Shown here: positions 28,714-63,129 of the stretch, piece by piece
Numbering within the stretch: position 1 is the stretch's first letter
How the letters are laid out: every line of letters begins with the position of its first letter
NCBI GenBank assembly: GCA_963739455.1
Contig: CAVUAK010000002.1
Span: forward strand, 160,001-224,000
Direction: 5' to 3'
DNA length: 64,000 bases
DNA from: an uncultured Gemmatimonadales bacterium
Lineage (GTDB): Bacteria; Gemmatimonadota; Gemmatimonadetes; Gemmatimonadales; GWC2-71-9
Notes under the pieces: generated by a model
Database searches by the model: none
Told to the model about the DNA's origin: nothing
What the model saw: only the letters and a program-made list of their open reading frames with translations
Program-made: the position numbers and the translations under genes

Positions 28714-30436
28714 CTAAACGGTAGTCCCCACCCCCCGAAGCTCCCTCGCACCGCGCGCGGCAAGCAGGTCCAGCACGGCAGCCCGGCTGCTGTGCACCGT
28801 CAATACGAGCAGGTCGCCTGGGCGCGCCCAGGCGAGTGCCCTGCTCACCGCGTCCACTTCGCTCTCACCATACTCAATCGCCTCCGCCGGCAGCCCGAGC
28901 CGGTGGAATTCGTCCGCAAGCATCCCGGGGATCTCCCCGATCGCGCGGCCGCGGCGATATGCCTCCATCTCCTTCACCACGACATGATCGATACCAATGG
29001 GCCAGGCACTCCGGGCCAGTCCGCGGATCGAGTCGTCGTCGCGGTTGCCGGCCTGCCCCAGGACCAGTCCGCGCCGCCCGCCCGGGAGCGCGCGGGCGAT
29101 CGCGGCCAGTGCCTGCATCCCGTGCGGATTGTGGGCGTAGTCGAGCAGCACTCGTACACCGCCGACATCAAACAGGCTCGCGCGCCCGGGGTTGTCGCTG
29201 TTGCTCTGGCCGAAGCTTGCGAGGGCCGAGCGTATCGCCTCGGGGGAGCAGCCAAGACACCACGCGGCCAGCGATGCGCCCAGGGCGTTTGCCACGTTGT
29301 GCACCGCCGCGCCACCCAGCGTCACCGGTGCCTCGTCGACGCCGAGCAGGTCGATGTACTCCTCCCCACGCCGCAGGACGAACCGGCCGTCGATCACCGT
29401 CGCCCACTGCTGCCCCGACGGCCGGGCTGCTTCCGCAGCGACTGCGCCATCCAGGCCAAACCAAGCCATGGGTACCCGGCCCGGCAGGACCTGCGCCGCC
29501 TGCCGCAGCACGCCGTCGTCCGAGTTGAGGACGAGGCGCCCATCATTTTCGATGACTTTCGCCACCACCAGCTTCGTCGCCGCGAGGCCCGCGAGGTCGG
29601 TGATGCCATACTCGCCGAAATGGTCGGCGGCAATGTTGGTGACCACAGCGACATCGGCATGCGTCACTGCCAGCCCGCGACGCAGGATCCCGCCGCGAGC
29701 CGTCTCGAGCACCGCAGCATCGATCCGCCTGTCCCGAAGCACGAGGCGCGCCCCCTCCGGGCCGGAATAGTCCCCCTCGGCGACCCGCTCGCCTCCAATC
29801 AACACGCCGTCGGTGCTGCTCCAGCCCGGGTGTCGCCCCTCGGCCCTGAGCATGGCGGCCATCAGCCGAACGGTTGTCGTCTTGCCGTTGGACCCCGTCA
29901 CCAGCGCCAGCGGCACGTCATGTATTGCGTGCCAGTCGATGGCACCTGCCTCCGGCAGTGCATCGAGCGCGAACGTGCGCGACCCGTTTCCCATGCCGAT
30001 CGTCACTGACTCGTCATCGCCGTAGAGCGACACCCCGTGCGCGCGCGCCGCCTGTTCGAGCGCAATCAGGCGAGGCTTCCGCTCCTCGGTGGCCAGCTGC
30101 GTGATCCGTTCGCGTGCGACATCGCGCGACTCGGCGACCGGGCCGCCCGTGAGTTCCACGGCGCGCGCCCAGGCCCACTCGTTGACTTCAGTGGCGGTGA
30201 GGAGAAGGTCGGCAGGCGCTTCGAAGCCGAGGCTGGCGCCGCCGCGGCGCGGAAGGACATGTGGCGTGGCGGGCACCCAGCCGAGGTCGTCCAGCATGAG
30301 CCGCAATCCGTCCGCCCAGCGCGAAATCAGCGATTCGGATTGCGTCGCATCGAACTCGACCTCGAGCACTGCCCCGGCCCCGTCCATGACACGGCTCGGT
30401 CCCAGCAGCCGGCGGGAGTCGAGGACGGTGGCCTGA

Positions 30437-30444
<8 letters not shown>
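28714..30444 (-). CDS. Cyanophycin synthetase-like protein: N domain plus Mur-ligase (M) domain, ATP-grasp domain largely absent
   Basis: DSRRLLGP N-terminus; VTGSNGKTTT, LETARGGILRRG, TNIAADH, DYAHNPHG; overlaps the cphA stop codon. Confidence 0.85.
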
Positions 30445-33289
<2,845 letters not shown>

Positions 33290-33307
33290 GGGTGAGGCCC
33301 CTCGGCG

Positions 33308-34150
33308 TCAGCCCCGGCCGGTGGCAGCCGGCGGGGCGTGCGCCTTTCGTCGGTGGAGATCGTAGCCGGCACCACGTACGAGCACGTGGAGCCGTACCCC
33401 GATCAGGCAGATCGGATCGCCCTTCTCCGCCTGGTCCATGGAGGAGTACTCCACGTCGGCAGGGTCGATGATGGTGATGGCATTGCTGCCCACCACCTCC
33501 AGCGTGTCATCCGGCCCGATGAACGCCGCCGTGTCCTCGTCCAGCCCAAGCCCGATGCCGAACGGATTGTACGCGAGCGCGGTCAGCAGCCGGCCCAGCC
33601 GGTCGCGCTGACGGAAATGTTGGTCTATAACGACGCGGTTGGTAAGACCCAGGCCCGGGGAGAGGGTCACGTCGCCCGAATGGGGGGTGGACCCCTCCTC
33701 CCCGCTGGCGATCATGTGCTCCGACAGGAAGGCCGCACCGGCCGAGGTACCGGCCACATGCACCCCCGCCGCGTTGAGCCGCCGGAGCGCGCGTGCCACC
33801 GAGGTGCCGCCCAGCGTGGTGGCCAGCCTGAGCTGGTTGCCACCGGTGAGGAACACGCCCCGCGCATTCTCGAGCGTGGCCAGCTTGTCGCCGTCCTCGC
33901 AGTCGGCCCGGGTCTCGAAGTCGAGGATGTCCACTCGCTTCGCACCGAGCTCCCGGAAGAGCGCCTCGTAGCGCTCACCGGTGTCGGCGAGGCTCGAGGC
34001 CGTGGGGATGACGACGATGCGCGCATCGCGCCCGCCGCAGAGCCGCACGAACCGCTTCAGGATGAGGGGGCTGCCGATCTTCGATTCGGCGCCGCCAACC
34101 GGGATGATGAAACCACGCACGTCGCCCTCCAATGACTTTGCCGGGCTCAC
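33308..34150 (-). CDS. cphB: Cyanophycinase (S51 peptidase)
   Basis: GGAE, IPTAS, TGGNQLRL, GTSAGA (catalytic Ser), DQHFRQRDRLGRL, GLDEDT. Confidence 0.95.
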   Translation of the reverse strand: MSPAKSLEGDVRGFIIPVGGAESKIGSPLILKRFVRLCGGRDARIVVIPTASSLADTGERYEALFRELGAKRVDILDFETRADCEDGDKLATLENARGVFLTGGNQLRLATTLGGTSVARALRRLNAAGVHVAGTSAGAAFLSEHMIASGEEGSTPHSGDVTLSPGLGLTNRVVIDQHFRQRDRLGRLLTALAYNPFGIGLGLDEDTAAFIGPDDTLEVVGSNAITIIDPADVEYSSMDQAEKGDPICLIGVRLHVLVRGAGYDLHRRKAHAPPAATGRG

Positions 34151-35317
34151 GAATCCTCTTTCTCAAAGGGTCCCTGAATGCGGGGCCGCCCATCGAACCG
34201 ATGCCAGCGCCCGCGCGCCATCACGTGCCGTACCGCATTGTCGGCCTGCAGTACCACGAGGTCGGCGTCAGCACCGACCTCGAGCCTGCCCTTCCCGGGG
34301 AGCCGCAGGAGCTCCGCCACGTTGCTCGTGAACGGCGGCAGCACCTGCTCCAGCGGACGCCCGCGCGCGAGCAGCGCACTGAGCGTGACTCATGAGCGCA
34401 CCAGGCGCGCCCACGTCCATTCCCGACACCCGACCATCGCTGTCGAACCGCGGCAGGCACCCACCACCATCCGAGCTCACCGTCACCCGCTCGGCGGGCA
34501 GGCCGGCATCCCAGTAGCGCTCCAGCGCATCCTCGGCCGCCCAGGCATCCTCACCATCCTCCACCGGGAATGCCGTGATGTCGATGGTCGGGCCGCGCTC
34601 CACCAGCGCCATGGCCTCGGCGAAGAGCGCCTTCCTGCGATTGACGTGCGTCGGGTTGAACACCCGCGCCGGCAACTCGCTCGTGTCGAGCGCCTGGCGC
34701 ACCAGCTCGAGACCGCGCGTGCCGTCGCCCACATGCAGGTGCACGATGCCGGCCTTGCCGCTCATGAGCCCGCCCACGTGCGCCTCGGAAGCGAGGCGCA
34801 GCAGGTCGTCCAGGGTGGGCTGGCTCGATCGATGATCGCTGATCGCCACCTCGCCAACCCCGATGATCTCATCGATGAGCGCGATGTCGCCACGCACGGT
34901 GCCGCTGAGCGTCGTCGGCGGCAGGTGGTAGCCGCCGGTGTGGCACCAGGCGGACAACCCGAGCTGCCTGAGGCCACGCGCCACGGTGACCAGTTCCGCT
35001 GTGGTGCGCACCGCATCGTCGGTGCCGAGCACCCCGATCGCGGTGGTGATACCACCTGCGGTAAGCGCGGTGACCTTGAGCGGTGGCACCCGGGTATGCG
35101 GACCCGCCTCGCCGCCGCCGCCCGTGAGGTGCACATGCCCGTCGATGAGGCCGGGGATGACGCGCAGTCCGCCGAGATCCATCTCGGCCACACCGAGCGC
35201 CGCCGGAAGATCCGGGAGCCGGGAAGCCATGGCGACGATCGTTCCGCCGGCAATGAGCAGGTCCTGGCGGCCGAGCCGCTCAGGAGCGTACAGCTCCGCC
35301 TGACGGAGGACGATCAT
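34147..35317 (-). CDS. iadA: Isoaspartyl dipeptidase (beta-aspartyl peptidase); frameshift near 34385
   Basis: IDGHVHLTGGGGEAG, GVLGTD, GEVAISDHRSSQP, HVGDG, PTHVNR, SSDGGG. Confidence 0.93.
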
Positions 35318-39281: not shown

Positions 39282-42050
39282 TTACCCCGTGGCCCCGAAC
39301 CCCGCGGCAATCGTGCTGATCGACAGCAGTAGCGCCGAGAGCACTTCCTTCCGCTCGGCCTCGTCGGTGGCACCCCGGAACTGCCGGATGAATTGCACCT
39401 GCTGACGGCTCACCTGGTTGAGCACCGGGAGCCGCCGGCCCAGCCGCCGCAGGAACCGGGGGAACTGCTCCGCCGGCGTTGCTGCTCCGGTGACCCGCAG
39501 CACCATCTCGCGTGTCCGCTCATACTCATCGACGATGAGCCCGAAGATCGCCTCCCGCGGTTCCGCGTCAGGCACCAGCGACGCAAACTCGCGCGCGATG
39601 TCCAGGTCCACATAGGTCAGCGTCTTCTCCACCTCATCCATGATCAGGCGGAACAGGCGCGAGTCGCGGTACATCCGGCCGATGAGCGCCTCGCCCCGCG
39701 CACCGCGCACCTCGAGGAAGGTCGCGAGCCCGCTGCCGACGCCGAACCACCCCGGCACGAAATGCCGGTTCTGTGACCATGCGAAGACCCAGGGAATGGC
39801 GCGGAGGTCGGAGAGTGATCGGGCACCGAAGCGGCGCGCGGGGCGCGAACCGAGATTGAGCAGCGCAAGCTCGTCGAGCGGGCTCGCCGCCTGGTAGTAG
39901 GTGAACAGGTGCGGGTGCTCGACGAATCGGCGGTACGCTGCCTGGGCAGCGCCGGACAGGGCCTCCAGCGCCTCGTCGAATTCCCCGACCGGCGCCAGCG
40001 CCTCCTCGCGCTCCGACTTGAGCGTGTGCACCATGACGCTCGATGCCAGCAGCTCGCACTGGTACTGCGCCGTGCCGCGGTTGGCGTACTTGTAGGACAC
40101 CACCTCGCCCTGCTCGGTGATGCGCATCCGCCCCTGCACCGATCCCGCCGGCTGTGCGGCGATCGCGCGCCCCAGCGGCGCACCGCCGCGACTCACCGAG
40201 CCGCCGCGACCGTGGAAGAACACCAGCGGCACGCCCGACTCCACTCCCACACGCGTGAGCTTCCGCTGGGCCTTGCTGAGTTCCCAGTTGGAGGTGAGGA
40301 ACCCGCCGTCCTTGTTCGAGTCGGAATAGCCGATCATCACTTCCTGCACCCCGCCCTGTCCCCGCACGCTGCGCTTCACCACCGGGATTGCCAGCAGCTC
40401 CCGCATGATGCCGGGGGCCCGCTGCAGGTCATCGATCGTCTCGAAGAGCGGAACAATCGGCAGTGAACAGCGCTCCACTGCCGCCTGGTCGGCGAAGAGG
40501 CCGCCTTCCTTGGCGAGCAGGAACGCCCCGAGCACGTCACTCACCGACCGCGTCATGCTGAGCACGAAGGAGCCGAACGCCTCGCGATCCACCTCGTCGC
40601 GCTGCTCCGCCACCAGGCGGAACATGCCCAGCGTCTCCTGCTCATCGGCGGGCAGTATCACCGGCGCTTCGTCCGGCCGGCGGGGACGGGCCAGTTCCGC
40701 CAGCAGCCAGTCGCGCCATTCGTCGCTCGTCACGTCGGGCGGATCGCCGGCGGCCGGCTGGCGCACGCGCCACAGGGCATGCAGCGCTGCCGTGAGCTTG
40801 GTGGAGTTCTCCCGCAGGTCGAGTCGCGTGGTGCTGAAGCGGAACGCCTCCACCTCGCGCCGGAGCGGTGTCACCACCCGGTGCTCCAGGCCGCCGCCCA
40901 TCGCCTCCGCAAGCGCCTGCTCGAGCAGCCGCAGGTCGGCCAGCAGCAGGTCGGCGCTGGGATAGCCATCCTCGCCCGCAATTCTCCCCTGCTCTGCCGC
41001 GTGCAGCGTTGCATCAAGCCGGAGCGTCATGCATGCGAGGAACTGCCGGAACACCTCGCCGGGGTTCCGGTTCGTGATCCCGTCTCCGTCCCCACTCTGC
41101 GCCAGCGCGCGGTCGAGCGCCAAGCGGAACGCCGGCGCCACCTGCACCGCGCGATCCGAGATACTCAATCGCCTCACCAGCTCCGTGAGCCGCTGCCGGT
41201 ATCGGCGCAGGGACGCGACCCGGTTCTCGTTGAGGGTGTTTCGGGTGACTTCGTTGGTGACGAACGGGTTGCCGTCGCGGTCTCCACCCACCCACGATCC
41301 GAACTGGAAGAACGGTGAGACATTGAAGGTGACGCCAGGATAGAACTGCGCGAGCGCCAGCTCCAGGCGCTCCAGGGTCTCGGGCACCGCGTCAAACAGC
41401 GTTTCCTGGAAGAAGTGCAGGCCCCAGTACACCTCCTGGGGCACGGTCGGCTTCTCCAGCCGCAGCTCGCCCGTCATCCAGAGCAGGTCGATCTCGTCCC
41501 GCAGCTGGTCCTCGAGCGCCCGGCGCTCGCGTGGCGTCCAGCGCGGCGACTCGAGGTCCACCAGCCGACGATAGATGCGGCGGTGCTTTTCCAGCACCGT
41601 CACACGCTTCGCCTCGGTGGGATGGGCCGTGATCACGGGACGTATGCGCAGGCGCTCCAGCAGGGCCTCGATCGCGGACGCCGGCGTGTCGGTCGCCACC
41701 GCCTCGGCGAACACGCCGGCAAAGGTGCCCTTCACGCCCTCCAGGCCGCGCGCCACTTCGACCTGCCGGCGGCGACGCATCGCTGCATTCTGCTCTGCAA
41801 TGCTGAGGAGCTGAAACCAGATGCCCTGCGCCTGGAGTGCCCGCACACACCGATCGATGGGAAGGTCCAGGCCGGACGCGTCGCCGCGCACGACCGGTTC
41901 GATGTCCGGGGCCCGGACGCGAATGACGTCGACCAGCAATGTGTAGAGGAGTTCCGCGACCTCGGTGGCATACGCCGCCGCGCTCGCGGCCACCGGGTCG
42001 GCCGATGTGGGGAGGTCCGCCGACGCGAACGGGTGCAGCAGGTCGGACAT
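39282..42050 (-). CDS. ppc: Phosphoenolpyruvate carboxylase
   Basis: ITAHPTE, SWVGGDRDGNP, VPLFETI.DL, VMIGYSDSNKDGG, HGRGGSVSRGG, LRAIPWVFAWSQ. Confidence 0.97.
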   Translation of the reverse strand: MSDLLHPFASADLPTSADPVAASAAAYATEVAELLYTLLVDVIRVRAPDIEPVVRGDASGLDLPIDRCVRALQAQGIWFQLLSIAEQNAAMRRRRQVEVARGLEGVKGTFAGVFAEAVATDTPASAIEALLERLRIRPVITAHPTEAKRVTVLEKHRRIYRRLVDLESPRWTPRERRALEDQLRDEIDLLWMTGELRLEKPTVPQEVYWGLHFFQETLFDAVPETLERLELALAQFYPGVTFNVSPFFQFGSWVGGDRDGNPFVTNEVTRNTLNENRVASLRRYRQRLTELVRRLSISDRAVQVAPAFRLALDRALAQSGDGDGITNRNPGEVFRQFLACMTLRLDATLHAAEQGRIAGEDGYPSADLLLADLRLLEQALAEAMGGGLEHRVVTPLRREVEAFRFSTTRLDLRENSTKLTAALHALWRVRQPAAGDPPDVTSDEWRDWLLAELARPRRPDEAPVILPADEQETLGMFRLVAEQRDEVDREAFGSFVLSMTRSVSDVLGAFLLAKEGGLFADQAAVERCSLPIVPLFETIDDLQRAPGIMRELLAIPVVKRSVRGQGGVQEVMIGYSDSNKDGGFLTSNWELSKAQRKLTRVGVESGVPLVFFHGRGGSVSRGGAPLGRAIAAQPAGSVQGRMRITEQGEVVSYKYANRGTAQYQCELLASSVMVHTLKSEREEALAPVGEFDEALEALSGAAQAAYRRFVEHPHLFTYYQAASPLDELALLNLGSRPARRFGARSLSDLRAIPWVFAWSQNRHFVPGWFGVGSGLATFLEVRGARGEALIGRMYRDSRLFRLIMDEVEKTLTYVDLDIAREFASLVPDAEPREAIFGLIVDEYERTREMVLRVTGAATPAEQFPRFLRRLGRRLPVLNQVSRQQVQFIRQFRGATDEAERKEVLSALLLSISTIAAGFGATG

Positions 42051-43022
42051 CTAGACCACGCGGTCGCGGAGCGGCTTGCCGGAAAAGAAGAGGCGAAGGT
42101 TTTCGAGCGCTCGCATGCCCATGGCGGCACGGGTTTCCCGTGTGGCGCTCCCCAGGTGCGGGAGGAGGACCACGTTCTCCATGGTGAGCAGCGCCGGCGT
42201 CACCACCGGCTCGCGCTCGAACACGTCGAGACCTGCGCCGGCGATCTGCCCCGACTGGAGCGCAGCAACCAGGGCGGCCTCATCCACCACGTCACCGCGA
42301 GCGGTGTTGATGAGGAATGCCGACTTCCGCATGCGGCCAAACCGTTCGGCATTCATGAGGTGCCGCGTCTCCGGCGTGGCGGGACAGTGCAGCGACACGA
42401 AATCGCTGCGCTCCAGGACCTCCTCGAGCGACCCGAGTCCTTCGGCGCCGAGTGCAGCCGCTTCCTGCGGTGATGGCGGGAACGGGTCGTGGAACAGCAC
42501 CTTCATGCCGAAGCCGTGGTGTGCCCGTCGCGCCACGGCGCGCGCGATACGGCCCATGCCGATGAGGCCAAGGGTCTTTCCGCTGACCTGCGTACCGATC
42601 ATGTGCGTCGGGCGCCAGCCCGTCCACTGTCCTGCCCGCAGGTGCCGCTCGCCCTCGCCTGTGCGGCGCGCCACGGTGAGCAGCAGGATCATCGCAATGT
42701 CGGCGGTGGCATCGGTGAGCACGTCGGGGGTGTTCGACACCGAGAGCCCGCGCGCCTTTGCGGCGTTCACGTCGATATGGTTGAACCCTACCCCGAAGTT
42801 GGCCAGGAGCCGTGCCCGCAGGGGCTCCGTCGCCAGCACATCGGCGGTGAACTTGTCGGTCACCGTCGGCAGGATCGCGTCCGCCGAGCGGAGTGCCTCC
42901 TGCAGCTGGTCCGGCGTCAGCGGCTTGTCGTCCGGGTTGAGTCGCGCGTCGAAATCCTTCTGCAACTCCGCTTCCACCTCGGCCGGCAGCTTGCGCGTCA
43001 CCACCACAACGGGGCGGCTCAC
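42051..43022 (-). CDS. hprA: D-glycerate dehydrogenase / hydroxypyruvate (glyoxylate) reductase
   Basis: NTPDVLTDATAD, GMGRIA, INTARG, GLDVFE.EP, LPHLGSAT; symbol assigned from serine-cycle context. Confidence 0.8.
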   Translation of the reverse strand: MSRPVVVVTRKLPAEVEAELQKDFDARLNPDDKPLTPDQLQEALRSADAILPTVTDKFTADVLATEPLRARLLANFGVGFNHIDVNAAKARGLSVSNTPDVLTDATADIAMILLLTVARRTGEGERHLRAGQWTGWRPTHMIGTQVSGKTLGLIGMGRIARAVARRAHHGFGMKVLFHDPFPPSPQEAAALGAEGLGSLEEVLERSDFVSLHCPATPETRHLMNAERFGRMRKSAFLINTARGDVVDEAALVAALQSGQIAGAGLDVFEREPVVTPALLTMENVVLLPHLGSATRETRAAMGMRALENLRLFFSGKPLRDRVV

Positions 43023-43930
43023 ACCTTCACCGTTGTCTTGCTGCTGCGCGACGCGAGCGCCTTTGCTACCGTGGTGCCCAGCTCCGCCGGGCTCGGCGCG
43101 ACCGTCAGGCCCAGCGAGCGCATGATCTCCGCCTTCTCGGCCGCCGTATCGCCGAATGCCGAGATGATGGCGCCCGCGTGGCCCATGCGCCGGCCCTTCG
43201 GCGCGGTGAGACCTGCCACATAGCCGACCACGGGCTTCTTCATGTTCTCCTTGACGAACTGCGCGGCCTCGGCTTCCTGTGGCCCGCCAATCTCGCCGAT
43301 CATCATGACGGCGTCGGTCTCAGGATCCTCCTCGAACAGCTTGAGGACGTCGAGGAACGAGCTGCCGTTGATCGGGTCGCCACCGATGCCAACACTGGTC
43401 GTGATGCCGATGCCCAGGGCCTTCATCTGGGACGCCGCCTCATAGCCCAGTGTGCCCGAGCGCGATACGACACCCACGTTGCCCTGCATGTAGATGTGGC
43501 CCGGCATGATCCCCATCATCGCCTTGCCCGGCGAGATGACGCCCGCGCAGTTGGGACCGACGAGCATGGTCCGCTTCTCCTTGGGGAAGCGCAGCATGTA
43601 GCGCTTCACCATCATCATGTCCTGCGCCGGGATGCCATCGGTGATGGCCACGACGAACTTGATGCCCGCCGCCGCGGCTTCCATGATGCTGTCGGCGCAG
43701 AATGCCGCCGGCACGAACACGAGGCTCGCCGTGGCGCCCGCCTGCTGCACCGCTTCCTTCACGGTGTTGAAGACCGGCCGGTCGAGGTGCTTCGCGCCGC
43801 CCTTGCCGGGCGTGACGCCGCCCACGACGTTCGTGCCGTAGGCGATCATCTCCTTCGCGTGGAAGGTCGCCTTGTCGCCCGTGAAGCCCTGGACGATGAC
43901 GCGCGTGGTTCCGTCGATCAGGATGCTCAT
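43019..43930 (-). CDS. mtkB: Malate--CoA ligase (malate thiokinase) alpha subunit
   Basis: SucD fold with MtkB-type segments 'GDKATFHAKEMIAYG', 'DGIPAQDMM.VKRY..R.PKEKRT', 'GGDPINGSSF'; MGHAGA. Confidence 0.88.
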   Translation of the reverse strand: MSILIDGTTRVIVQGFTGDKATFHAKEMIAYGTNVVGGVTPGKGGAKHLDRPVFNTVKEAVQQAGATASLVFVPAAFCADSIMEAAAAGIKFVVAITDGIPAQDMMMVKRYMLRFPKEKRTMLVGPNCAGVISPGKAMMGIMPGHIYMQGNVGVVSRSGTLGYEAASQMKALGIGITTSVGIGGDPINGSSFLDVLKLFEEDPETDAVMMIGEIGGPQEAEAAQFVKENMKKPVVGYVAGLTAPKGRRMGHAGAIISAFGDTAAEKAEIMRSLGLTVAPSPAELGTTVAKALASRSSKTTVKV

Positions 43931-43933
43931 GGG

Positions 43934-45131
43934 TCAGGCCCTCCCCGCCGCAGTAGACCGCCCCTTCGCGTCATTCATTGCCTTCACCACTCGCTCCGCC
44001 GCATCCGCCAGGGAGTCGGCGGTGATGATCGGGAAGCCCGCTGTCCTTGAGGATCTTCTGCCCCTCGACGACGTTGGTGCCGGCCAGGCGCACCACCAGC
44101 GGGATCTTCATCTGGGTCTCGCGCGCGGCCTGCACCACGCCCTGCGCCACCCAGTCGCAGCGATTGATGCCGGCGAAGATGTTGACCAGCATCGCCTCGA
44201 TCTTGGGATCGGCCAGCACCAGCCGGAACGCCGCGGCAACGCGCTCCGGGCTCGCGCCACCACCCACGTCGAGGAAGTTGGCCGGCTCGCCACCGGCGTG
44301 CTTGATCATGTCCATGGTCGCCATGGCCAGGCCGGCACCATTGATGATGCAGCCGATGTTGCCGTCGAGCGCCACGTAGTTGAGGCCGTGTTCCCCCGCC
44401 TGCGCCTCGCGCGGATCCTCTTCGGCGTAGTCGCGCAGCTCGGAGACATTGGGCCGGCGGAAGAGGGCGTTGTCGTCGAACGTCATCTTCGCGTCGAGCG
44501 CCAGCAGCGACCCGTCCTTCGTCACCACCAGCGGGTTGATCTCCACCATCGTCGCGTCGAGGTCCCGGAACGCCCGGTAGGCGCCGAGCAGCGTGGTGAC
44601 GGCACGGCTCACCTGCGCCGGCCCGAGGCCCAGCCCGAAGGCGATCTCCCGCGCCTGGAACGCCGTCATGCCGATCGCCGGCTCGACCACTTCGCGCAGG
44701 ATCGCGTTGGGCGTGTTCTTGGCGATCTCCTCGATCTCCATGCCGCCCTGTGGCGCCGCGACCACCATGATGCGCTCGCTCTTCCGGTCGAGCACCAGGC
44801 CGACGTACAGCTCGCGCTCGATCGGCACCGCCTGCTCGATATAGAGGCGGTGCACCACGCGTCCCTCGGGGCCCGTCTGGTGCGTGATCAGCCGCTTCCC
44901 CAGCAGCGCCTTGGCGCCCTGCCGCACCTCGTCCTCGGTGCTGCAGATCTTCACGCCGCCCGCCTTGCCGCGCGCGCCGGAATGGATCTGCGCCTTCACG
45001 GCCCAGCGCGTACCGCCGATTTCCGAGGCCCGGTACACCGCCTGCTCGGGACTGTAGGCCACGCCCCCGCGGGGAATGACGACGCCGAAACCGGCGAGAA
45101 GTTCCTTGGCCTGATATTCGTGGATGTCCAC
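43934..45131 (-). CDS. mtkA: Malate--CoA ligase beta subunit; frameshift near 44035
   Basis: [26 protein letters not shown], MtkA-type '[14 protein letters not shown]' (SucC has GGIVRCD). Confidence 0.9.
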
Positions 45132-45143
45132 AGAGGTCTCCGT

Positions 45144-46097
45144 TTACTTGGTCTTCGTGCGGGCGGCGACCTTCTCGCCGATCTCAACGATCACCTGCGC
45201 CTGCCGTGCACTCGCCGCGTCGATCATGCGGCCGTCGAGTTGTGCCGCACCCTTGCCCTCCTTGGCCGCCTCGATCGAGCGCCGCCAGGATGCGATGCGC
45301 CCGGTCCACCTCCGCCGGCGGCGGGGAGAACACCTCGTTCGCCAGCGCCACCTGCGACGGATGGATGGCCCACTTCCCCTCGATGCCGAGCGCCGCATCG
45401 CGCTTCGCGGCGAGGACGTAGCCGTCGGGGTCCTTGATGTCGCCGAACGGGTCCGTCGATGGCGCGCAGTCCGTAGGCGCGACAGGCCACGGTCATGCGG
45501 GAGAGGGCGAAGTGCCACTGGTCACCGGGATAGTCGGGATTGAGGCCGCCGATGTTCACGGTGCGCGCGCGGACACTGGCCGCATAGTCGGCCACGCCGA
45601 AATGCATCGCCTCGAGGCGCTTGCTCGACTGCGCAATGGCCTCGACGTTCGCCATGCCGAGCGAGGTCTCGATCAGGACTTCCAGGCCGATGCGATGGGA
45701 AATGCCCTTGGCGATCTCGATCTGCGTCAGCAGCGCATCGGTGAGGTAGACATCCGCGGCGACGCCCACCTTCGGGAATCAGCACCAGGTCCAGCCGGTG
45801 CCCGGCCTGCTCGATGACGTCCACGACGTCGCGATAGAAGTAGTGGGTGTCGATGCCGTTGACCCGCACCATGATCGTCTTGCCCGCCGCCCGCCAGTCG
45901 TGCTCCAGGAGCGACGCAATCACGTTCAGCCGCGCCTGCTCCTTGTCCGCGGGAGCCACGGCGTCCTCGAGATCGAGGAACACCGTGTCCGCGTCACTCT
46001 CCAGCGCCTTGCCGAACATTTGCGGCTGGGAGCCCGGGACCGCCAGTGTGCTGCGCTGCAGGCGGGTCTGGGCTGGCTCGAACCGCGTGAAGCTCAC
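45144..46097 (-). CDS. mcl: Malyl-CoA lyase; frameshifts near 45775, 45450 and 45290-45410
   Basis: MSFT...RLQRS.LAVPGS, DLEDAVAP.DKEQAR, IETSLGMANVEAIA, FGVADYAAS, ACRAYGLR.IDGP, LDGRMID. Confidence 0.9.
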
Positions 46098-47335
46098 GCG
46101 ACCCCCGCCGGCTGCCGTGCCGGCGCCGCCGACTCGGCGGGCCCGGCCACCTTCTTCGCCGGGAGCGGCTTCGACGTCTCCAGCCAGTACTTCTGGGCGG
46201 CGGCGACTCCACTCCCCAGGTCCACCTTGATGCCCACATCGGACATCGCCATCTCGGCGCCACCGATTCCGGCAAGCAGCGTGATCTCGTTCAGGTCGCC
46301 CAGGTGACCGATGCGATACAGCTTGCCGGCCACCTTGTTGAGCCCGGCGCCGAGCGCAAAATTGTACCGGCGGTACGCAACGTCGATCACGTCACCACCG
46401 TTGAACCCGCTCGGCACCATGATGGCGCTCACGGTGTCGGAGTGCCACTTCGGCGCCTTCGCGCACAAGGTGAGGCCCCAGGCCTTCACCGCGCGACGAC
46501 ATCCTTCCGCCAGCCGGTTGTGCCGCGCAAAGACGTTCTCCAGCCCCTCCTCGAACAGCATGTTCAGCGCCTCGCGCAAGCCGTACAGCATCGGGATCGA
46601 CGGCGTGTACGGGAAGTAACCGGTCGCGTTTGCCTTGAGCATGTCCTCATAGCTCCAGTAGCAACGCGGGAGCTTCGCCGTCTTGCCCAGGTCGATGGCA
46701 CGCGGGCTGGCGCACACGATGCCCGCCCCGGCCGGAAGCATGAAACCCTTCTGCGAGCCGGTGACGCAGATGTCGACCTTCCATTCATCCATGCGGAAGT
46801 CGAGGCTCGCGAGCCCCGAGACGCTGTCCACGAACAGGAGCGCCGGGTGCTTCGCGGCATCCATCGCCTTGCGCACCGCGCCGATGTCGCTGGTGACACC
46901 CGTGGCGGTCTCGTTGTGCACCACGCACACCGCCTTGTACTCGTGCTTCGTGTCCTTGCTCAGCAGTTCGTGGATCGTCTCGGGCGGCGCGCCCTCGCCC
47001 CACTCGACGTCCACCGCCGTCACGTCGAGCCCCAGCCGCTGCATCATGTCGATCCAGAGGTGGCTGAACTGCCCGTAGCGGAACGAGAGCACCTTGTCGC
47101 CCGGCGACAGCGTGTTCACCAGCGCCGACTCCCAGCCGCCGGTGCCGGTGCCCGGGAAGACGATGGCCTGGCCCGTTTCCGTCTTGAAGACCTTCTTGAG
47201 GTCGCTGAGGATCGGGCCGGCGAGCGCCGGGAACGACGATGAGCGGTGATCCTCCATCGGCACGTGCATCGCCCGGAGGATCCTGTCGGGGGAATTCGTT
47301 GGCCCCGGCACGAAGAGAAGATTGCGACCCGACAT
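46094..47335 (-). CDS. sgaA: Serine--glyoxylate aminotransferase
   Basis: GRNLLFVPGPTN.PDR, EDHRS, GTGGWE, HNETATGV, TGSQKG (PLP Lys), GYFPYTP, RIGHLGDLNE. Confidence 0.92.
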   Translation of the reverse strand: MSGRNLLFVPGPTNSPDRILRAMHVPMEDHRSSSFPALAGPILSDLKKVFKTETGQAIVFPGTGTGGWESALVNTLSPGDKVLSFRYGQFSHLWIDMMQRLGLDVTAVDVEWGEGAPPETIHELLSKDTKHEYKAVCVVHNETATGVTSDIGAVRKAMDAAKHPALLFVDSVSGLASLDFRMDEWKVDICVTGSQKGFMLPAGAGIVCASPRAIDLGKTAKLPRCYWSYEDMLKANATGYFPYTPSIPMLYGLREALNMLFEEGLENVFARHNRLAEGCRRAVKAWGLTLCAKAPKWHSDTVSAIMVPSGFNGGDVIDVAYRRYNFALGAGLNKVAGKLYRIGHLGDLNEITLLAGIGGAEMAMSDVGIKVDLGSGVAAAQKYWLETSKPLPAKKVAGPAESAAPARQPAGVA

Positions 47336-47419
47336 TGCCAAACCTCACGCGAAGTAGGAAACCTGCTCCGCGGCCTCACCGGGCCCCGGCTCACCCCGAG
47401 CAGCGCGACTGTCCGCTAC

Positions 47420-47428
47420 TGGTATATT
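47420..47428 (+). promoter_or_regulatory. Possible extended -10 promoter (TGnTATATT) for gck in the divergent sga/gck intergenic region
   Basis: TGGTATATT in an AT-enriched patch about 40 nt upstream of the ATG at 47468. Confidence 0.3.
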
Positions 47429-47467
47429 CAACCGCTCAGCGACTCAACACCAGCCTGCAAGAACTTC

Positions 47468-48802
47468 ATGATCGAGAACTTACCCGCCGGCACGCCGGAC
47501 CGCGCGTTGCTGGAGGACCTGTACCATGCCGCCGTGGCGGCCGTCGATCCCGGCCCCGCCGTGGCCGCGGCACTCGAGTCGGGCGGGCACCTGCTCGCCG
47601 CTCGTGGCCACGGGCTCTGGATCCTCGCGCTCGGCAAGGCCGCGATGCCAATGGCCGAGGCGGCAGTGCGCGCGACGCAGCGTGCCGGCCTCGAGATCAG
47701 CGGTGGCCTGGTGGTCGCCCCCGCCGGCGCACCGGCCCCCCATCCTGCCATGCCGCTCGTCGTGGGCGATCACCCCGAGCCAGAGCAAGGCTCGCTCGCC
47801 GCGGCGGCGGCGCTTGGTCAGGTCGCCTCTCGCGTCCGCCCCGGCGACCATGTCTGGGTGCTGCTCTCGGGCGGCACAACGAGCCTCATCGGCGCGCCCG
47901 TCGAGGGCATTACCCCGGGCGACCTTCGCGAGTTGTACCGACTCCTGCTCGGGTCAGGCCTCGACATCAGCGCCATGAACCGGGTCCGGAAGCGCTTCAC
48001 CCGCTGGGGAGGCGGAAAGCTCGCCGCGGCACTCGGTCGGGCCACGGTCCGCCAGTTCATCGTCTCCGATGTCATCGGCGACGACCTGCCATCCATCGGC
48101 TCGGGGCCGTGCGTCCCCGATCCCGCGACTGCCACCGAGGTGCGCCAGGCCCTCGAACACGCCGGCACTCTGGCAACGCCTGCCCGATTCGCTCCGCCAG
48201 CTCGTCACCGACACCGAACATGGCACACGACCGGAAACACCGAAGCCGGATCACCCGGCGTTCGCCTCGGTGGTTACGGAAATTGTGTCGAGTAATCGGC
48301 TGGCGCTGGAAGCGGCGGCCGGGCGTGCGGCAGTGTTGGGCCTCGTCCCCGAGATCGCGCCCGAACCCCTGGCCGGGGAGGCGAACCTGATCGGAACGAG
48401 TGTAGCCGCGACTTTGAGAAATTATTCACAAGCGCACGGAACGCAAGGGACCGCAAGGCGTTGCGTGATTCTTGGGGGTGAGACCACAGTGACGCTGGGG
48501 ACGGGTCACGGATTGGGCGGACGGAGCCAGGAACTGGCCCTGGCGGCGGCGAGGGCACTGGCGGGAACAACGGGGAATTTCGCTGCTCGCGGCCGGCACC
48601 GACGGGCGGGATGGGCCGACCGACGCGGCAGGCGCCATGGTCGACGGGTCCACCTGGTCGAGCGATGACGGCGGCGGGACGAGACCCGGCCGCCGATCTG
48701 GCCCGTCACGATGCCTACCCTGCCCTGAAGGCCGCGGGCGCGCTCTTCCAGCCCGGGCTTACTGGAACGAACGTGATGGACGTCGTGATCGGGCTGGCGT
48801 GA
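47468..48802 (+). CDS. gck: Glycerate 2-kinase (DUF4147 + MOFRL); frameshifts near 48170, 48580 and 48660
   Basis: LGKAA..MA, GDHP.P, LLSGG.TSL, SDVIGDD...IGSGP, GGETTV, GGRSQELAL, GTDGRDGPTDAAGA, TGTNVMD. Confidence 0.9.
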
Positions 48803-49759: not shown

Positions 49760-51447
49760 ATGACTGCGCTTATCGAATGCGTTCCCAACTTCAGCGAGGG
49801 ACGCGACCCCGAAATCATCCGGCAGATCACCGCGGCCATCGAATCGGTCGAGGGCGCGACCCTGCTTCACGTCGACGCGGGCAAGGCCACCAACCGTACC
49901 GTGGTCACGCTCGCCGGCCCGCCCGAGGCGGTCGTCGAGGCGGCCTTTCGCGGGATCGCGAAGGCCACCGAGTTGATCGACATGCGACACCACTCCGGCG
50001 AGCACCCGCGCATGGGCGCGACCGATGTCTGCCCCCTGGTGCCGATCAGCGGCATCTCGATGGAGGAGACGGCCGCGTTCGCGCGCCAGCTCGCCGGGCG
50101 TGTCGGCACCGAGCTCGGCGTCCCGGTCTACCTCTATGAAGCCGCCCAGTCCAACCCGGCGAAGAAGAACCTCGCCACCATCCGCGCCGGCGAGTACGAG
50201 GGACTGGCTGCGAAGCAGGCCGACCCGGCATGGAAGCCCGACTTCGGCCCGACCGCCTTCAACGCGAAGAGCGGCGCCACCGTCATCGGTGCGCGCGACT
50301 TCCTCGTCGCCTACAACGTCAACCTCAACACCACCTCCACCCGGCGCGCCAACGCCATCGCGTTCGACGTGCGCGAGGCGGGGCGTCCTGCGCGCGATGG
50401 CGACCCGCTCACCGGCAAGGCAGCTGACCGACGCTGCGGGACGACCCGTGATGGTGCCGGGCACGCTCAAGGCGGTGAAGGCGATCGGATGGTATATCGC
50501 CGAGTACGGCCTGGCCCAGGTGTCGATGAACCTCACCGACGTCGCCGTCACGCCACTGCACGTGGCGTTCGATGAAGTCTGCCGCGCGGCGGAAGCAAGA
50601 GGCGTGCGAGTGACCGGGTCGGAGCTGGTGGGCCTTGTTCCGCTCCAGACGATGCTCGACGCCGGTCGCCACTTCCTCCGGAAGCAGCAGCGCTCGCTCG
50701 GCGTCTCGGACCAGGAACTGGTCCGGACGGCCATCCGCTCCCTGGGCCTCGATGAACTGGCGACGTTCAACCCCGACGAGCGGATCATCGAGTACCGGTT
50801 GCGCGACCGTTCGGGCGGCCGGCTGGTCAGGATGACGGTGCAGGCCTTCGCCGACGAGACCGCCGCCGAGTCGGCGGCACCGGGTGGCGGCTCAGTGGCC
50901 GCCTTGCTGGGCACGCTGGGCGCCGCCCTCGGCACCATGGTGGCCAACCTGTCGGCACACAAGCGCGGCTGGGACGAACGCTGGGAGGAATTTTCACAGT
51001 GGGCTGAGCGCGGCCAGCGGCTCAAGGACGAGCTGCTCCGGCTGGTCGACGAGGACACCATCGCCTTTGAACGGGTCATGACGGCACTGTCGATGCCCAA
51101 GGCCACACCTGGGGAGAAGGCGACTCGCGCCGCCGCGCTTGCCGCGGCCAATCTCGGCGCGCTCGAGGTGCCATGGCAGGTGATGCGCACGTCGTTCGAG
51201 GCCTTCGACCTCCTGGCCGCGATGGCCGAACGGGGCAACCCCGCGTCGGCGTCCGACGCGGGTGTCGGCGCCATCTGCGCCCGCGCGGCGGTCCGCGGGG
51301 CCTGGCTCAACGTCCGCACCAATGCGGGTGGCGTGAAGGACAAGGTGAAGCTCGAGGAGATCCTGGCGGCAGGCGCTCAGCCTCGAACGAGCGGCGGCCG
51401 AGCGCGAAGCCGCGATCCTGACGATCGTTGAATCGAAGTTCGCCTAG
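49760..51447 (+). CDS. ftcD: Bifunctional glutamate formimidoyltransferase / formiminotetrahydrofolate cyclodeaminase; frameshifts near 50420 and 51380
   Basis: IECVPNFSEGR, GEHPRMGATDVCP, GARDFLVAYN, QVSMNL, APGGGSVAA, GNP.S.SDAGVG. Confidence 0.95.
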
Positions 51448-58783: not shown

Positions 58784-60246
58784 AGTAGTTGCCGACGGTC
58801 AGGCCGTAGCGTGTCGGGTTGGTCACCTTCACGATCGACCGCACGAAGTGCCCCGGCCCATCCTGGTCCGCCAGGTTGACGAGCGTGCCCGGCGCCGGCA
58901 CCGCGCCACCATTCACGTCGATCGCGATCCGCACCAGCGGACGGTTGAGCAGCGTGGCGTCGGGATTCGGCGCGTACACGATGGCCACTTCGAGGGTATC
59001 GAGGATGACGCACGTCCCGACCGGGATAGATGCCGATGAGGTTGATCAGCGCCTTCACCAGGATCAGGTCGTAGCCGCGCTTCGGGTTCTCCCACATTTC
59101 GCGGAGCACCTGGTCGGGCTCGATCGGGATCGTCTGGTAACTCCGACGCGTGGTGGCGGCATCGAACCCGTCGGCCACCGCCACAATGCGCGAATAGAAC
59201 CCGAGCTGGCGCGGACGGATCGGCTTCGGATAGCCGGTGAGGTCCGTCTTCATGTGGTGCTCGTGGGCCACGAGGATCGCCCGGTACGGGATCTCATCGT
59301 ACCCCCGCAACCCGAACAGCGTGAGGCCCCCGAGCCAGGGATGCGCCTGCATCGCCTTCCACTCGGTGTCATCAAGGCTGGTGGTCTTGTTGAGGATCTC
59401 GTGCGACACGCGCGCCTTGCCCAAGTCGTGCATGAGCGCCGTCATGCCAAGGTCGTAGAGCTGCAGGCGGCTCAGGCTGAGCTTCTTCCCCAGCGCCACC
59501 GAGAAGATGCACACGTTCACCGAGTGGGTGAACGTGTACTCGTCGTAGTCGCGGATGGTGGTGAGGCCCACGATCGAGGTCTCGTTGTTCAGCACCTGGT
59601 CCACGATCATCTGCACGGCGCGCTTCACCTTCTTGGCCCCGCTCGCCCGGCCCATCCGGATACTGGTGATCACCTCGCGCGTCACCGCCACGCCCTGGGC
59701 ATAGGTGCGCTTCGCGACTTCCTTCTGCCGCTCCTGGTCCTCGAGGTTCTCCTCGCTCGGCTGGGCCAGCTCGATCTCGAGGTGGGTCACCCCTGCCCCC
59801 TCGAGCCGGCTGCGCACCTCCTCGTACACGCCCTCGATGCCCGCGCGTGGCTGCAGGCTGAGGAGCACGCTCAGGAAGGCCTGCCATTCCCGCCGCTCGA
59901 CGCCGGGATGTACCCGGACGACACCGATCTCGTAGGCCCGGAACTGCGCGAGGATCTGGCTGAACGACGCGTAGTTGTCGAGTTCGAGGCGGAGGCGTGT
60001 CTGGTTGATGAAGATGAAGTCGCCCGCCAGGCGGATCTCGACCTCGGTCTCGGTGCGCAGGATGGTGACGGCAGTTCCCTGCAGGTCGTCGAGCGCCTTC
60101 TGCACCGTGGCATTCTCGACGGGATAGAGCTTGAGGCTCCGGAGTGCCGCGTACAGGTCGAGCAGCAGCCCGCGCCCGGCGGTGCGCAGTGCGCCGTCCT
60201 GCGACGGCGGTTCGCCCTGGCGCTGACCCGGCATGCCGGTGCTCAT
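58776..60246 (-). CDS. HD-GYP domain phosphohydrolase; frameshift near 59025
   Basis: [24 protein letters not shown]....[18 protein letters not shown]. Confidence 0.9.
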
Positions 60247-61929
60247 GCCGCCGGCTGGCCCCGAAGCGCACGGCTCACCGCCTGGCGCACGACGAGGTCC
60301 TTGTCGTCGACCACCTTCTGCAGCACTGCGCGGGCCTCCGGCGTGCGGATGCGGCCGAGCGCCACCGCCGCACAGGCGCGCGTCTCCGGTCCCGCCTTGT
60401 AGCCGAGGAGGCCGCGCGTGAGCAGCATGCTCTGAAGCGTCGGAGATGGCGGTGGGCCCGGCGATGGCGCCGTAGGCCTCGAAGAACGCCATCTTCTCGG
60501 TCAGGTCGAGGTCCTTGCGTTCCGACTTGCCGAGAATGACGGGTTCGATGCGCTTCAGGGCATTGCGGATGCCGCGGGCGCCCATCGCGCGCACCGCCGC
60601 CAGGCGCACCGAGCGGTCGTCGTCGTCGATCGCGAGTTCCATGGCGGTCAGCGCACCGGGAGACGCCACCTCGGCCAGCGCCAGGACCGAGGCGAGGCGT
60701 ACCACCGGATCCGGCGAGCGCACCGTCTCGCCCAGGCCCGGCACGGCGCCCTGCAGCTTCAGTCGCCCGCACATCTCGACGACTTCCTTCACCGCAGTGC
60801 CAGTGGGATCGCGCAGCAGCTTCAGCACCTCGGCCGGGGAGCTCGCCGCGATGCGATCGGCCGCCTGCTCCAGCAGCTCGCGCACATGCGCATTGTTGAG
60901 CGTCGGCAGCCAGGTGACGATGGCCCCGAGCGCCGATGGGTGAAGTTCGCGCAACACCTCGGTGACATCCTCGTCGCCGGCCAGCGCGGCTGCGCCGTCG
61001 AGCGACACCATCAGCTGGCGCACGATCTCGGGCTCGCTCAGCTTCGCCTCGAAGGCGAGCAGCCGGTCGCGCAGCTCGGTGGAAAGGTGCGGAGCCTTCT
61101 GTACGAGGGAGCGTACGTCGCGCATGACCGACGCGACGGCGCGGAACTCGCCGGCATTGAGGAGGTTGGGCAGCAGCGTCTCGAGGACACCGATGATCTC
61201 GTCCCGGATCGCCCGGTCCGATTCCATCTCGAAGATGTCGTAGAGGGCGGCGAGGGCGCTGGCACGCGCGTCGCGCGCGTACTCCTGGCGAAGCTGCTCC
61301 GCCACGGCGGCGATCTCGTTCTCGTCCAGGAAGTAGAGCGTGCTGTCGAATTCCTCGAGGTCGACGATCCCGCCCGGCTTGGGCGGCGCCTCCTCGCGCA
61401 CCTGCTGCTGCACCTGCGCCGCCGACGTGGCGGTGTTGCCCCCCATCGCGCCCATCGCCTCGGGCACGACCTCGTCCCCGAAGCCCTCGACGAATCGGTA
61501 CGCGATGTGGTTGAACTCCTGTTCCCACAGCAGCGTCAGCAGGTCATCGCTCGCATCCTGCTGCATGAACCGCGCACGATTGACCACCTCGAGGAACCGG
61601 ATGATCTCCTCTTCCTCGACACCCTTCCGCAGGGTCAGCACCCGCATGCCGTCCTTGTACAGCGTCCAGGCGAGGCTCTCGGTCTTGGTGAGCTGGTGGT
61701 ACACCACCTGCTCCTCCCAGATGAAGTCGGTCTCGGCCACCTGCAGCACGAGGTCGTCGAGCACGGGCCAGATCGGGGCGAAGCCCGCGCGCACGTTCTG
61801 GCTGGCGCGCTGGTACATCGGGTTGTTGGGGAGGTACATCTGGAAGGCGCGGAGCGCCTTCACCAGGCTCTGGATGAGCTCGGAGACCTGTGAGGTCGGC
61901 AGGATCATCTCGTTCGGGCCGGCGGTCAC
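60243..61929 (-). CDS. HEAT-repeat protein; frameshift near 60435
   Basis: All-helical, C-terminal HEAT/PBS repeats ([43 protein letters not shown]). Confidence 0.85.
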
Positions 61930-63129
61930 GCCTTCTCCCCGAGGATGGACGCGACGTGCGCGACGTCCTTGTCCCCGCGTCCGCTGAGACAGACGAGCAC
62001 CGAGGCGTCCGGCGCCCGCATCACCGCGCTGGCGAAGCAGCCACGCGAATGCGTGGGCCGTTTCCAGCGCGGGAATGATCCCCTCGAGCCGGCAGACCGC
62101 CTGGAACGCCGCCAGTGCCTCGGCATCGTTCGCGGTTTCGTAGCGCACGCGCCCGCTGTCGTGCAGCCAGCTGTGCTCTGGTCCCACGCCGGGATAGTCT
62201 AGTCCGGCCGACACCGAGTGCGCGGGCGACACCTGACCGTCGGCGTCCTGCAGCAGGTAGCTCAGGCTTCCGTGCAGGACGCCCGGGCGGCCGGCGGTGA
62301 GCGTGGCACTGTGGCGGTGCCCTTCCAGTCCCTCGCCGGCCGCCTCCACGCCAATCAGTTCGACTTCCGGGTCATCGAGGAATGCCGCGAAGACGCCGAT
62401 GGCATTCGAGCCACCGCCGACGCAGGCCACCACACTGCGAGGCAGCGCGCCGGTGCGTGACAGCATCTGTGCCCGCGCCTCCCGGCCGATGACCGACTGG
62501 AAATCACGCACCATGCGCGGGTACGGATCCGGTCCGACCACGGAACCGATGATGTAGTGCGTGGTGGGAACATTGGTGACCCAGTCGCGCAGCGCCTCGT
62601 TGGTGGCATCCTTGAGCGTGCGAGTGCCCGACTCGACCGGCACCACGGTGGCCCCAAGGAGCTGCATGCGATAGACATTGAGCGCCTGCCTTGAGACATC
62701 TTCCGCGCCCATGTACACGACGCACTCGAGACCGAACCGCGCGCAGACGGTGGCCGTTGCCACCCCGTGCTGGCCAGCGCCCGTCTCGGCGATGATGCGG
62801 CGCTTGCCCATGCGAAGCGCGAGCAGCGCCTGCCCGATCGTGTTGTTGATCTTGTGCGCGCCCGTGTGGTTGAGGTCCTCACGCTTGAGCCACACCGGCA
62901 CGCCGACCTGCTGTGAAAGCCGCGGCGCTGGCGTCAGGGACGACGGACGACCCGCGATGTCGGCGAGGTATCCCTCAAACTCGGCCCAGAACGACGCATC
63001 CTGCCGCGCGACGTCATACAGCTCCGCCAGGTCGTCCAGTGCAGCCACCAGCGTCTCGGGCACGTATCGACCACCATAGGGGCCGAAACGTCCCACGATG
63101 CCGCTGTCTGGCGTCACGCTAACCGTCAC
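61926..63129 (-). CDS. trpB: Tryptophan synthase beta chain; frameshift near 62030
   Basis: [51 protein letters not shown]. Confidence 0.97.

Follow-up and report, generated by a model that had tools for sequence, protein, structure and literature searches.

Gemmatimonadota may assimilate methanol for growth or simply oxidise it for energy, and a cluster of seven genes that bears on this lies in a 64,000-nucleotide stretch of an uncultured Gemmatimonadales genome (GCA_963739455.1, contig CAVUAK010000002.1, positions 160,001 to 224,000 of the forward strand). We refer to this whole stretch as the window and use its coordinates for the cluster; the genome under study is called G000 (four contigs totalling 3.6 Mb; completeness 83.7%, contamination 0.44%), and C1, C2 and C3 are its contigs. 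An earlier note, made from the letters of the window, had read the cluster as a rearranged serine-cycle module for one-carbon assimilation. We find that the seven genes, judged by their sequences, make up a conserved operon whose products are homologous to serine-cycle enzymes. Because methanol- and formaldehyde-oxidation genes are found in the same genome, this bacterium likely builds biomass from methanol. We propose, with a probability of roughly 0.76, that the operon assimilates methanol-derived one-carbon units and that glyoxylate is replaced via a divergent isocitrate lyase. The host group, the presence of the pathway in it and the gene order are already known, and the operon itself alters nothing known of the serine cycle; what we add is the divergent predicted isocitrate lyase and the order-wide map. 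Gemmatimonadota are reported to be abundant in soil, and their XoxF proteins abundant in soil proteomes (PMC5103831, PMC6784897).

The serine-cycle gene cluster

Six genes on the minus strand form one tightly packed unit in the order sga-mcl-mtkA-mtkB-hpr-ppc, with a glycerate kinase gene, gck, transcribed divergently, and all seven lie where the earlier note had placed them. The first, sga (46094..47335), is intact and encodes a BhcA/Sga-type aminotransferase whose top PDB match is the serine-glyoxylate aminotransferase 6PK1 (E 9.8e-144). It is followed by mcl (45144..46097), a malyl-CoA lyase gene with CitE/Mcl-family matches, whose intact orthologue in G080, a genome of another genus in the same family, matches the malyl-CoA lyase 5UGR (E 3.5e-125). 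Next come mtkA (43934..45131) and mtkB (43019..43930; 303 residues, intact, SucD-family match), for the beta and alpha subunits of a predicted malate thiokinase. The intact hpr (42051..43022; 323 residues) encodes a hydroxypyruvate/glyoxylate reductase of the GyaR/GhrB type, which scores 309.4 bits on the NCBIfam GyaR model, under the curated cut-off of 455. Its PDB matches include, among glyoxylate reductases, the D-glycerate dehydrogenase 1GDH (E 6.6e-70), which we take to be the Hyphomicrobium serine-cycle enzyme. The unit ends with ppc (39282..42050; 922 residues, intact), the one phosphoenolpyruvate carboxylase gene detected in the whole genome, for which NF000584 is the sole family match (757.9 bits, under the curated cut-off of 815). 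On the plus strand, gck (47468..48802) encodes a MOFRL-type glycerate 2-kinase with PF13660 on its N-terminal piece; the intact G080 orthologue carries PF13660 and PF05161.

Adjacent genes overlap by 4 nt at sga/mcl and at mtkB/hpr, and hpr and ppc abut. The 132-bp divergent region between sga and gck (47336..47467) presumably holds the promoters; the SecR motif CCYACCCG is absent from it, and no regulator gene adjoins. Neither mtdA nor fch lies within the cluster, as had been noticed at the outset, and Rfam gave 0 matches across the window. The signature serine-cycle enzymes Sga, Hpr, Gck, MtkAB, Mcl and Ppc are all present by family, and the enzyme set first claimed is borne out by NCBIfam families and solved relatives.

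One rival reading takes the Mtk-like pair for a second succinyl-CoA synthetase or a different dicarboxylate-CoA ligase, and the aminotransferase for the BhcA of a beta-hydroxyaspartate cycle. MtkA does pass the SucC cut-off (527.7 bits), and BhcA is the top NCBIfam model for the aminotransferase (599.2 bits, under the curated cut-off of 650). However, MtkA scores 675.8 bits on NF010647, the model for the malate-CoA ligase beta subunit (cut-off 604), and sucCD genes distinct from the pair are found on the same contig (C2:79.7-81.7 kb), so that the pair is not the genome's only candidate SucCD. The SucC piece encoded there shows the reverse pattern, with 371.1 bits on the SucC model and 298.6 on the MtkA model. 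In a tree MtkA is placed among Mtk proteins, with SucC set apart by long, fully supported branches, and MtkB is 69% identical to the subunit from an Aminobacter cluster, to which the genome's own SucD is 56% identical. The tree of Sga likewise separates it from three annotated BhcA proteins, which form their own clade. We found no bhcD homologue in the genome, its bhcB/C-like matches reach 27-40% and lie away from the cluster, and the bhcABCD cluster of the beta-hydroxyaspartate cycle is not present. These comparisons support the original assignment of the pair to MtkAB rather than SucCD and leave the rival reading very improbable. Specificity for malate is a prediction, the solved relatives of the pair being succinyl-CoA ligases only. 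A Mtk/Suc-like beta subunit from a genome outside the order (G216:C268:10566-11729) is intermediate at 505 bits, SucC scoring about 400 and MtkA over 660.

In this assembly mcl is read in four pieces (three frameshifts), gck is also in four pieces, and mtkA has one frameshift near 44030, at its 3' end. Such damage would be expected if the cluster were a decaying relic in this strain. However, each of the three genes is a single open frame in 3 of the 4 translated congener loci (G203, G206 and G208; the fourth, G209, is broken throughout). In G000 itself sucC, fhs, mch and eno are broken likewise, the essential genes eno and sucC among them, and across the genome about 643 of the 4265 predicted fragments adjoin one another out of frame. 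Because the cluster genes are intact in congeners and these other genes are broken alike, the frameshifts are most likely assembly indels, and decay of the cluster seems hardly credible.

Predicted methanol oxidation and the spread of the module

The genes needed to feed such a cycle lie elsewhere in the genome. On C1, xoxF (C1:1137807-1139615; 637 bits on TIGR03075), xoxJ (over cut-off) and xoxG form a unit (1,136-1,140 kb) that adjoins a 25-kb tetrahydromethanopterin (H4MPT) island. This island holds fae, the methylene-H4MPT dehydrogenase gene mtd, fhcB/A/D, mch, an mptG-like gene and cofactor-synthesis genes, with fae, fhcA and fhcD scoring over cut-off. The XoxF sequence carries a DYD motif, presumably the mark of a lanthanide-binding XoxF. 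Also over cut-off are glyA and the alpha and gamma subunits of an NAD-type formate dehydrogenase; fhs is present, eno is found as a fragment, and folD, mdh, gltA and pqqE were identified by motif and gene list, mdh also by its position before the sdh genes. The genes pqqB-E were assigned from the gene list by their sequence features. The genome further contains sdh, citrate synthase and aconitase genes, as well as gcvP and gcvT. A motif scan of the genome for RubisCO found none, and because of this we see no other route of one-carbon assimilation. The suggestion that glyA, eno and mdh lie outside the window thus holds, all three being located elsewhere, and the genome lacks neither glyA nor a one-carbon source. 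Four further homologues of pyrroloquinoline quinone (PQQ)-dependent dehydrogenases, one of them over the TIGR03075 cut-off, are encoded at C3:119747-121549, C1:1404728-1406515, C1:1571009-1573000 and C1:913146-914933. A tRNA-Sec gene lies directly upstream of the formate dehydrogenase genes (C1:2506324-2512327); despite this, the alpha subunit is a single 949-residue frame with no internal stop.

Based on this gene set, we propose that XoxF, with XoxJ, XoxG and PQQ, would oxidise methanol, presumably in a lanthanide-dependent manner, and that formaldehyde would be converted to formate on H4MPT by Fae, Mtd, Mch and Fhc. Formate would have two fates: oxidation by the NAD-linked formate dehydrogenase, or loading on tetrahydrofolate by Fhs followed by reduction by FolD. 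Fhs and FolD would supply the methylene-tetrahydrofolate of a cluster that has no mtdA or fch, with FolD used in the reductive direction. GlyA would make serine, and Sga, Hpr, Gck, Eno, Ppc, Mdh, MtkAB and Mcl would turn serine and bicarbonate into acetyl-CoA and glyoxylate. A second glyoxylate would be drawn from acetyl-CoA by citrate synthase, aconitase and isocitrate lyase, as in the 'icl+' serine cycle.

We next asked how the module is distributed in 201 genomes of the order, a fixed set made up of G000 and 200 others at least 85% complete; the denominators include one unpublished genome (G079), a negative row. These genomes are kin, and the counts describe a co-inherited module and do not amount to a statistical test. 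MtkA is over cut-off in 41 of the 201 (G000 itself, 32 of 92 members of its family, 8 of 92 members of a second and 0 of 16 of a third), and two more genomes, G134 and G198, were recognized by MtkB at 78-81%, bringing the mtk-positive genomes to 43. Among the genomes of a phylum-wide draw, the 62 from outside the order all fell short of the MtkA cut-off. Among the mtk-positive genomes, 41/43 carry fae (one of them, G056, as a weak paralogue only) and 38/43 an xoxF orthologue, versus 9/158 and 5/158 of the others. Five genomes (G066, G074, G166, G175 and G190) have an xoxF orthologue and fae and no mtk, and are candidates for methanol oxidation without serine-cycle assimilation. The full 9.5 kb cluster is present in 9/9 congeners at 77-88%. 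At 27 loci of relatives, mcl-mtkA-mtkB-hpr is contiguous in every case, sga precedes it in 26 (one is cut by a contig end), ppc comes next in 24, and a divergent gck is seen in 19. No 8-mer upstream of sga recurs in more than 8 of 32 Gemmatimonadota loci.

A divergent isocitrate lyase homologue

How glyoxylate would be regenerated is the step at which the earlier note had pointed to either ccr/ecm or aceA. We found no ccr in G000, where the best score is 162.8 bits against a cut-off of 378.55, nor in any of the 201 genomes among the best candidates scored (at most 8 per genome), and we ruled out the ethylmalonyl-CoA pathway as the regeneration route on this basis. Malate synthase was not found in G000 either. 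The sole isocitrate-lyase-like gene of G000 encodes a divergent protein of 380 residues (C2:400613-401752, or L104:2614-3753) and lies 190 kb from the cluster on the same contig.

Compared with AceA from E. coli, M. tuberculosis and Brucella, the protein shares the fold and most active-site motifs, but has a 7-residue insertion after an RTCGH motif and no central small-domain segment. It keeps the AceA-type SGW, DxE, HxE, CGH, ARTD, WxE, NxSPS and FxTL, at several of which PrpB differs. The SGW, WxE, NxSPS and FxT positions set substrate choice, and at these, as at Cys-Gly-His, the protein is of the AceA rather than the PrpB type. A structure model (predicted local distance difference test score 80.5, the catalytic loop under 50) was searched with Foldseek, and isocitrate lyases are 25 of 25 among the matches listed, at a template modelling score of about 0.65.

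An isocitrate lyase homologue is present in 40/43 mtk-positive genomes (27 divergent, 13 canonical) versus 50/158 others, and orthologues of the divergent gene at over 70% occur in 27/201 genomes, every one of them mtk-positive. None of these 27 also has canonical AceA, which is found in 63 of the other 174, and the divergent gene is carried by 21 of the 26 genomes that have malate synthase without canonical AceA. Among genomes with an isocitrate lyase, malate synthase is missing from 10/40 mtk-positive ones versus 1/50 mtk-negative ones. All nine congeners have the divergent gene and four of them malate synthase, which is missing in three genomes that are 97-99% complete. Taken together with its residues, we think it probable that the divergent protein cleaves isocitrate, and it is likely the glyoxylate-regeneration route of the cycle. 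Many members of the clade are labelled 'isocitrate lyase' by the Joint Genome Institute; a literature search that covered few subscription journals returned no paper on it. The third-ranked Atlas cluster for the protein (score 0.95) is commonest in Chloroflexota, and on that single row the clade may reach beyond Gemmatimonadota.

A serine cycle could be real and the divergent protein still not be an isocitrate lyase, in which case the cycle would yield acetyl-CoA only, or would draw glyoxylate from co-substrates (mixotrophy). Several features point this way and weigh against our proposal. The protein scores 176 bits on TIGR01346 (cut-off 276) and 186 on NF011645 (562), and is 31% identical to E. 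coli AceA versus 27% to PrpB. It has RTCGH in place of KKCGH, as do 54 of 55 aligned members, and it is without the C-terminal lid; the catalytic loop region and this lid are important for isocitrate lyase catalysis (PMC5430663). Its gene has a low G+C content at third codon positions (GC3; 7th percentile in G000) and adjoins hflX and polysaccharide genes, with no one-carbon or tricarboxylic acid cycle genes beside it. Against this stand the mutual exclusion with canonical AceA, the presence in genomes that have malate synthase and no canonical AceA, the retained AceA-type residues and the fold matches; moreover, the neighbour hflX is constant whereas the polysaccharide genes vary among genomes. 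We judge this alternative, which bears on the regeneration step only, to be rather unlikely.

The operon might instead serve mainly heterotrophic two-carbon metabolism, with methanol as an energy supplement oxidised to CO2. Glyoxylate or glycolate would then pass to three-carbon compounds via Sga-Hpr-Gck with glycine cleavage as the one-carbon source, and on acetate Mcl and Mtk would run backwards as a malate synthase substitute. The presence of gcvP and gcvT suits such a role, and Mcl as a stand-in would account equally well for the 10 of 40 mtk-positive genomes that have a lyase but no malate synthase. Related genes also occur in loci of Methylococcaceae, which assimilate mainly by the ribulose monophosphate route. 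In addition, a 13C-methanol proteomic stable isotope probing (SIP) study of soil gives no evidence of assimilation for the group, as its main text does not name Gemmatimonadetes among the labelled genomes (PMC6908837). However, the transcription unit includes Ppc and MtkAB, which belong to the forward cycle; the presence of mtk goes along with that of fae and xoxF, both rare in genomes that have no mtk; and fhs is present where no other assimilation route is seen. Two-carbon use and methanol assimilation can coexist, and two-carbon metabolism as the main role is, in our estimate, improbable.

Further points count against methanol assimilation through this operon, as does the labelling study just cited. 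G000 is incomplete, 5 of the 43 mtk-positive genomes are without an xoxF orthologue, 3 of the 43 (assemblies of 160-340 contigs) are without any isocitrate lyase, kinship makes the co-occurrence counts non-independent, and the ccr negative extends to the few candidates scored in each genome. A 13C-methanol DNA-SIP study reports one Gemmatimonadales metagenome-assembled genome, 58% complete and a possible cross-feeder (PMC10994693). Among the rows listed in a 2016 soil proteome table (PMC5103831), K14067, K08692 and K08691 do not appear, and K00830 and K01637 belong to other taxa. Activity, expression and isotope labelling in the lineage, and with them growth on methanol, are predictions from genes.

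Extending methanol assimilation by this cycle to the whole soil-type branch (at least 7 genera), we give an even chance to its members being lanthanide-dependent methylotrophs with a complete icl+ serine cycle acquired in one ancient event, in which an undescribed clade of lid-less RTCGH isocitrate lyases replaces AceA as the source of glyoxylate. If so, because curated models miss the divergent lyase, pathway surveys would conclude that these genomes cannot close the cycle. The divergent lyase is a cheap and decisive biochemical target. A marker set of MtkA over the NF010647 cut-off, fae, an xoxF orthologue and either isocitrate lyase makes roughly one in five of the order's genomes in our sample stand out as candidates for enrichment on methanol with a lanthanide.

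Origin and known serine-cycle clusters

The closest MtkA matches (81-89%) are labelled Gemmatimonadales/Gemmatimonadota, which agrees with the host first suggested and not with a known proteobacterial methylotroph; the host name is based in addition on the nearest relatives of the lyase and on synteny of the core flanks with G080. The possible horizontal origin of the cluster was examined with quick IQ-TREE trees, unrooted and with SH-aLRT (Shimodaira-Hasegawa-like approximate likelihood ratio test) support only, whose comparison sequences came from the 80 best MtkA loci, a set that held no Methylobacterium, Rokubacteria or Binatota. In the MtkA tree all 50 Gemmatimonadota sequences group together (support 85) within the Mtk family, those of the second family making up a subclade of their own (98), and Gemmatimonadota Sga (93) and Mcl (97) likewise form single clades. 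In the Hpr tree a distant HprA-type outgroup roots within the Gemmatimonadota rows, so that monophyly is not shown for this protein. The sisters differ, MtkA and Sga lying near Methyloversatilis/Methylocella/Methylocapsa-type sequences (support 84 and lower) and Mcl having no supported sister. G+C content is flat across the window, and the cluster genes fall at the 46th-95th GC3 percentile of 2011 genes; composition and codon use of the cluster are native, with no sign of recent arrival. These properties, the cluster in 9/9 congeners and the rlmN and panBCD flanks shared with G080 rule out recent horizontal transfer. The suggested horizontal acquisition is plausible only as a single ancient event close to the base of a portion of the order. 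The simplest reading of these trees is that an ancestor within the order probably acquired the module a single time and that its descendants inherited or lost it. At L057, L064, L079 and L091, mtkA stands beside sga or mcl in records of Ca. Cybelea, Verrucomicrobiia, Acidimicrobiales and Pseudonocardiaceae; either the module has spread to further phyla outside the Proteobacteria, or the records are misbinned.

Other genes near the cluster and in the genome are described here for completeness. A cyanophycin cluster (window 28753-35317), with two synthetase-like genes and with cyanophycinase and isoaspartyl dipeptidase genes over cut-off, lies between rlmN and ppc, whereas in G080 rlmN directly adjoins ppc. 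A glutamate formimidoyltransferase/cyclodeaminase gene (window 49760-51431; TIGR02024 over cut-off), a tetrahydrofolate-linked one-carbon donor, lies 1 kb from gck; in G080 this gene is not beside the cluster. An open frame of 1370 residues (window 59023-63132), whose start we take to be tryptophan synthase beta-like, is far beyond the usual TrpB length and is either a fusion or an assembly artefact. Two tRNA gene arrays (C1:1362006-1364015 and C3:281799-301339) possibly derive from integrated elements.

The earlier note had spoken of little biochemical evidence for methylotrophy in this phylum. Butterfield et al. (2016; PMC5103831) had already published the pathway in soil Gemmatimonadetes, reporting XoxF, H4MPT genes upstream and a canonical malate-intermediated serine pathway. 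In their Fig. S4, malate-CoA ligase, malyl-CoA lyase and isocitrate lyase each have a column, and Gemmatimonadetes rows hold entries in these; isocitrate lyase appears to be scored in those bins, although the column alignment is unreliable in the table as read by machine. That account, as far as it describes this group, gives no operon layout, order-wide distribution or tree, assigns isocitrate-lyase regeneration to Rokubacteria, and proposes a 3-phosphoglycerate route where the cluster here has a MOFRL-type glycerate 2-kinase. XoxF in the phylum is confirmed by two further reports (PMC6784897, PMC10875860), the second of which also describes the serine pathway in the majority of the XoxF-bearing genomes it covers.

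As had been remarked, the gene order differs from the Methylobacterium (Type V) layout, sga-hpr-mtdA-fch-mtk-ppc-mcl with an HprA-type reductase. However, the rearrangement is not novel, since the order sga-mcl-mtk-hpr-ppc is listed as 'Type I' (PMC13199381). The six-gene order is common to our cluster, Mesorhizobium kowhaii (L071) and the loci L023, L024, L042 and L058 from gammaproteobacterial metagenome-assembled genomes, and the GyaR-type Hpr, rightly recognized at first as GyaR-like, is usual for this layout. In Type I clusters secR stands beside sga, whereas here the divergent gck does, and the SecR motif is found upstream of sga in 2/32 Gemmatimonadota loci versus 13/51 other loci, mostly Rhizobiales. 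The one-carbon source also differs, being methylamines there and apparently methanol via XoxF/H4MPT here. The cluster has the Type I order, yet we do not file it as a SecR-regulated Type I member.

The Aminobacter aminovorans plasmid pAA01 (Type II; PMC8235418) has sga-mcl-mtkA-mtkB-hpr in the same order as here, with identities of 58, 66-76, 70, 69 and 63% for Sga, Mcl, MtkA, MtkB and Hpr (62.6% between our Hpr and its D-glycerate dehydrogenase). As described there, gck follows hpr, ppc lies elsewhere with glyA, and the plasmid-borne cluster is linked to the N-methylglutamate pathway. In Aminobacter NyZ550 the operon sga-mcl-mtk-hpr-gck is methylamine-induced (PMC13199381). In its proposed chemistry the system here comes near to the icl+ cycle of Methyloversatilis universalis FAM5 (PMC5023235), which is described as using MtdA/Fch, an HprA-type reductase (33-35% identical to our Hpr) and another gene order, but which shares the serine cycle, H4MPT-linked oxidation, FtfL and regeneration by isocitrate lyase, and which expresses both its serine cycle and Icl on one-carbon substrates.

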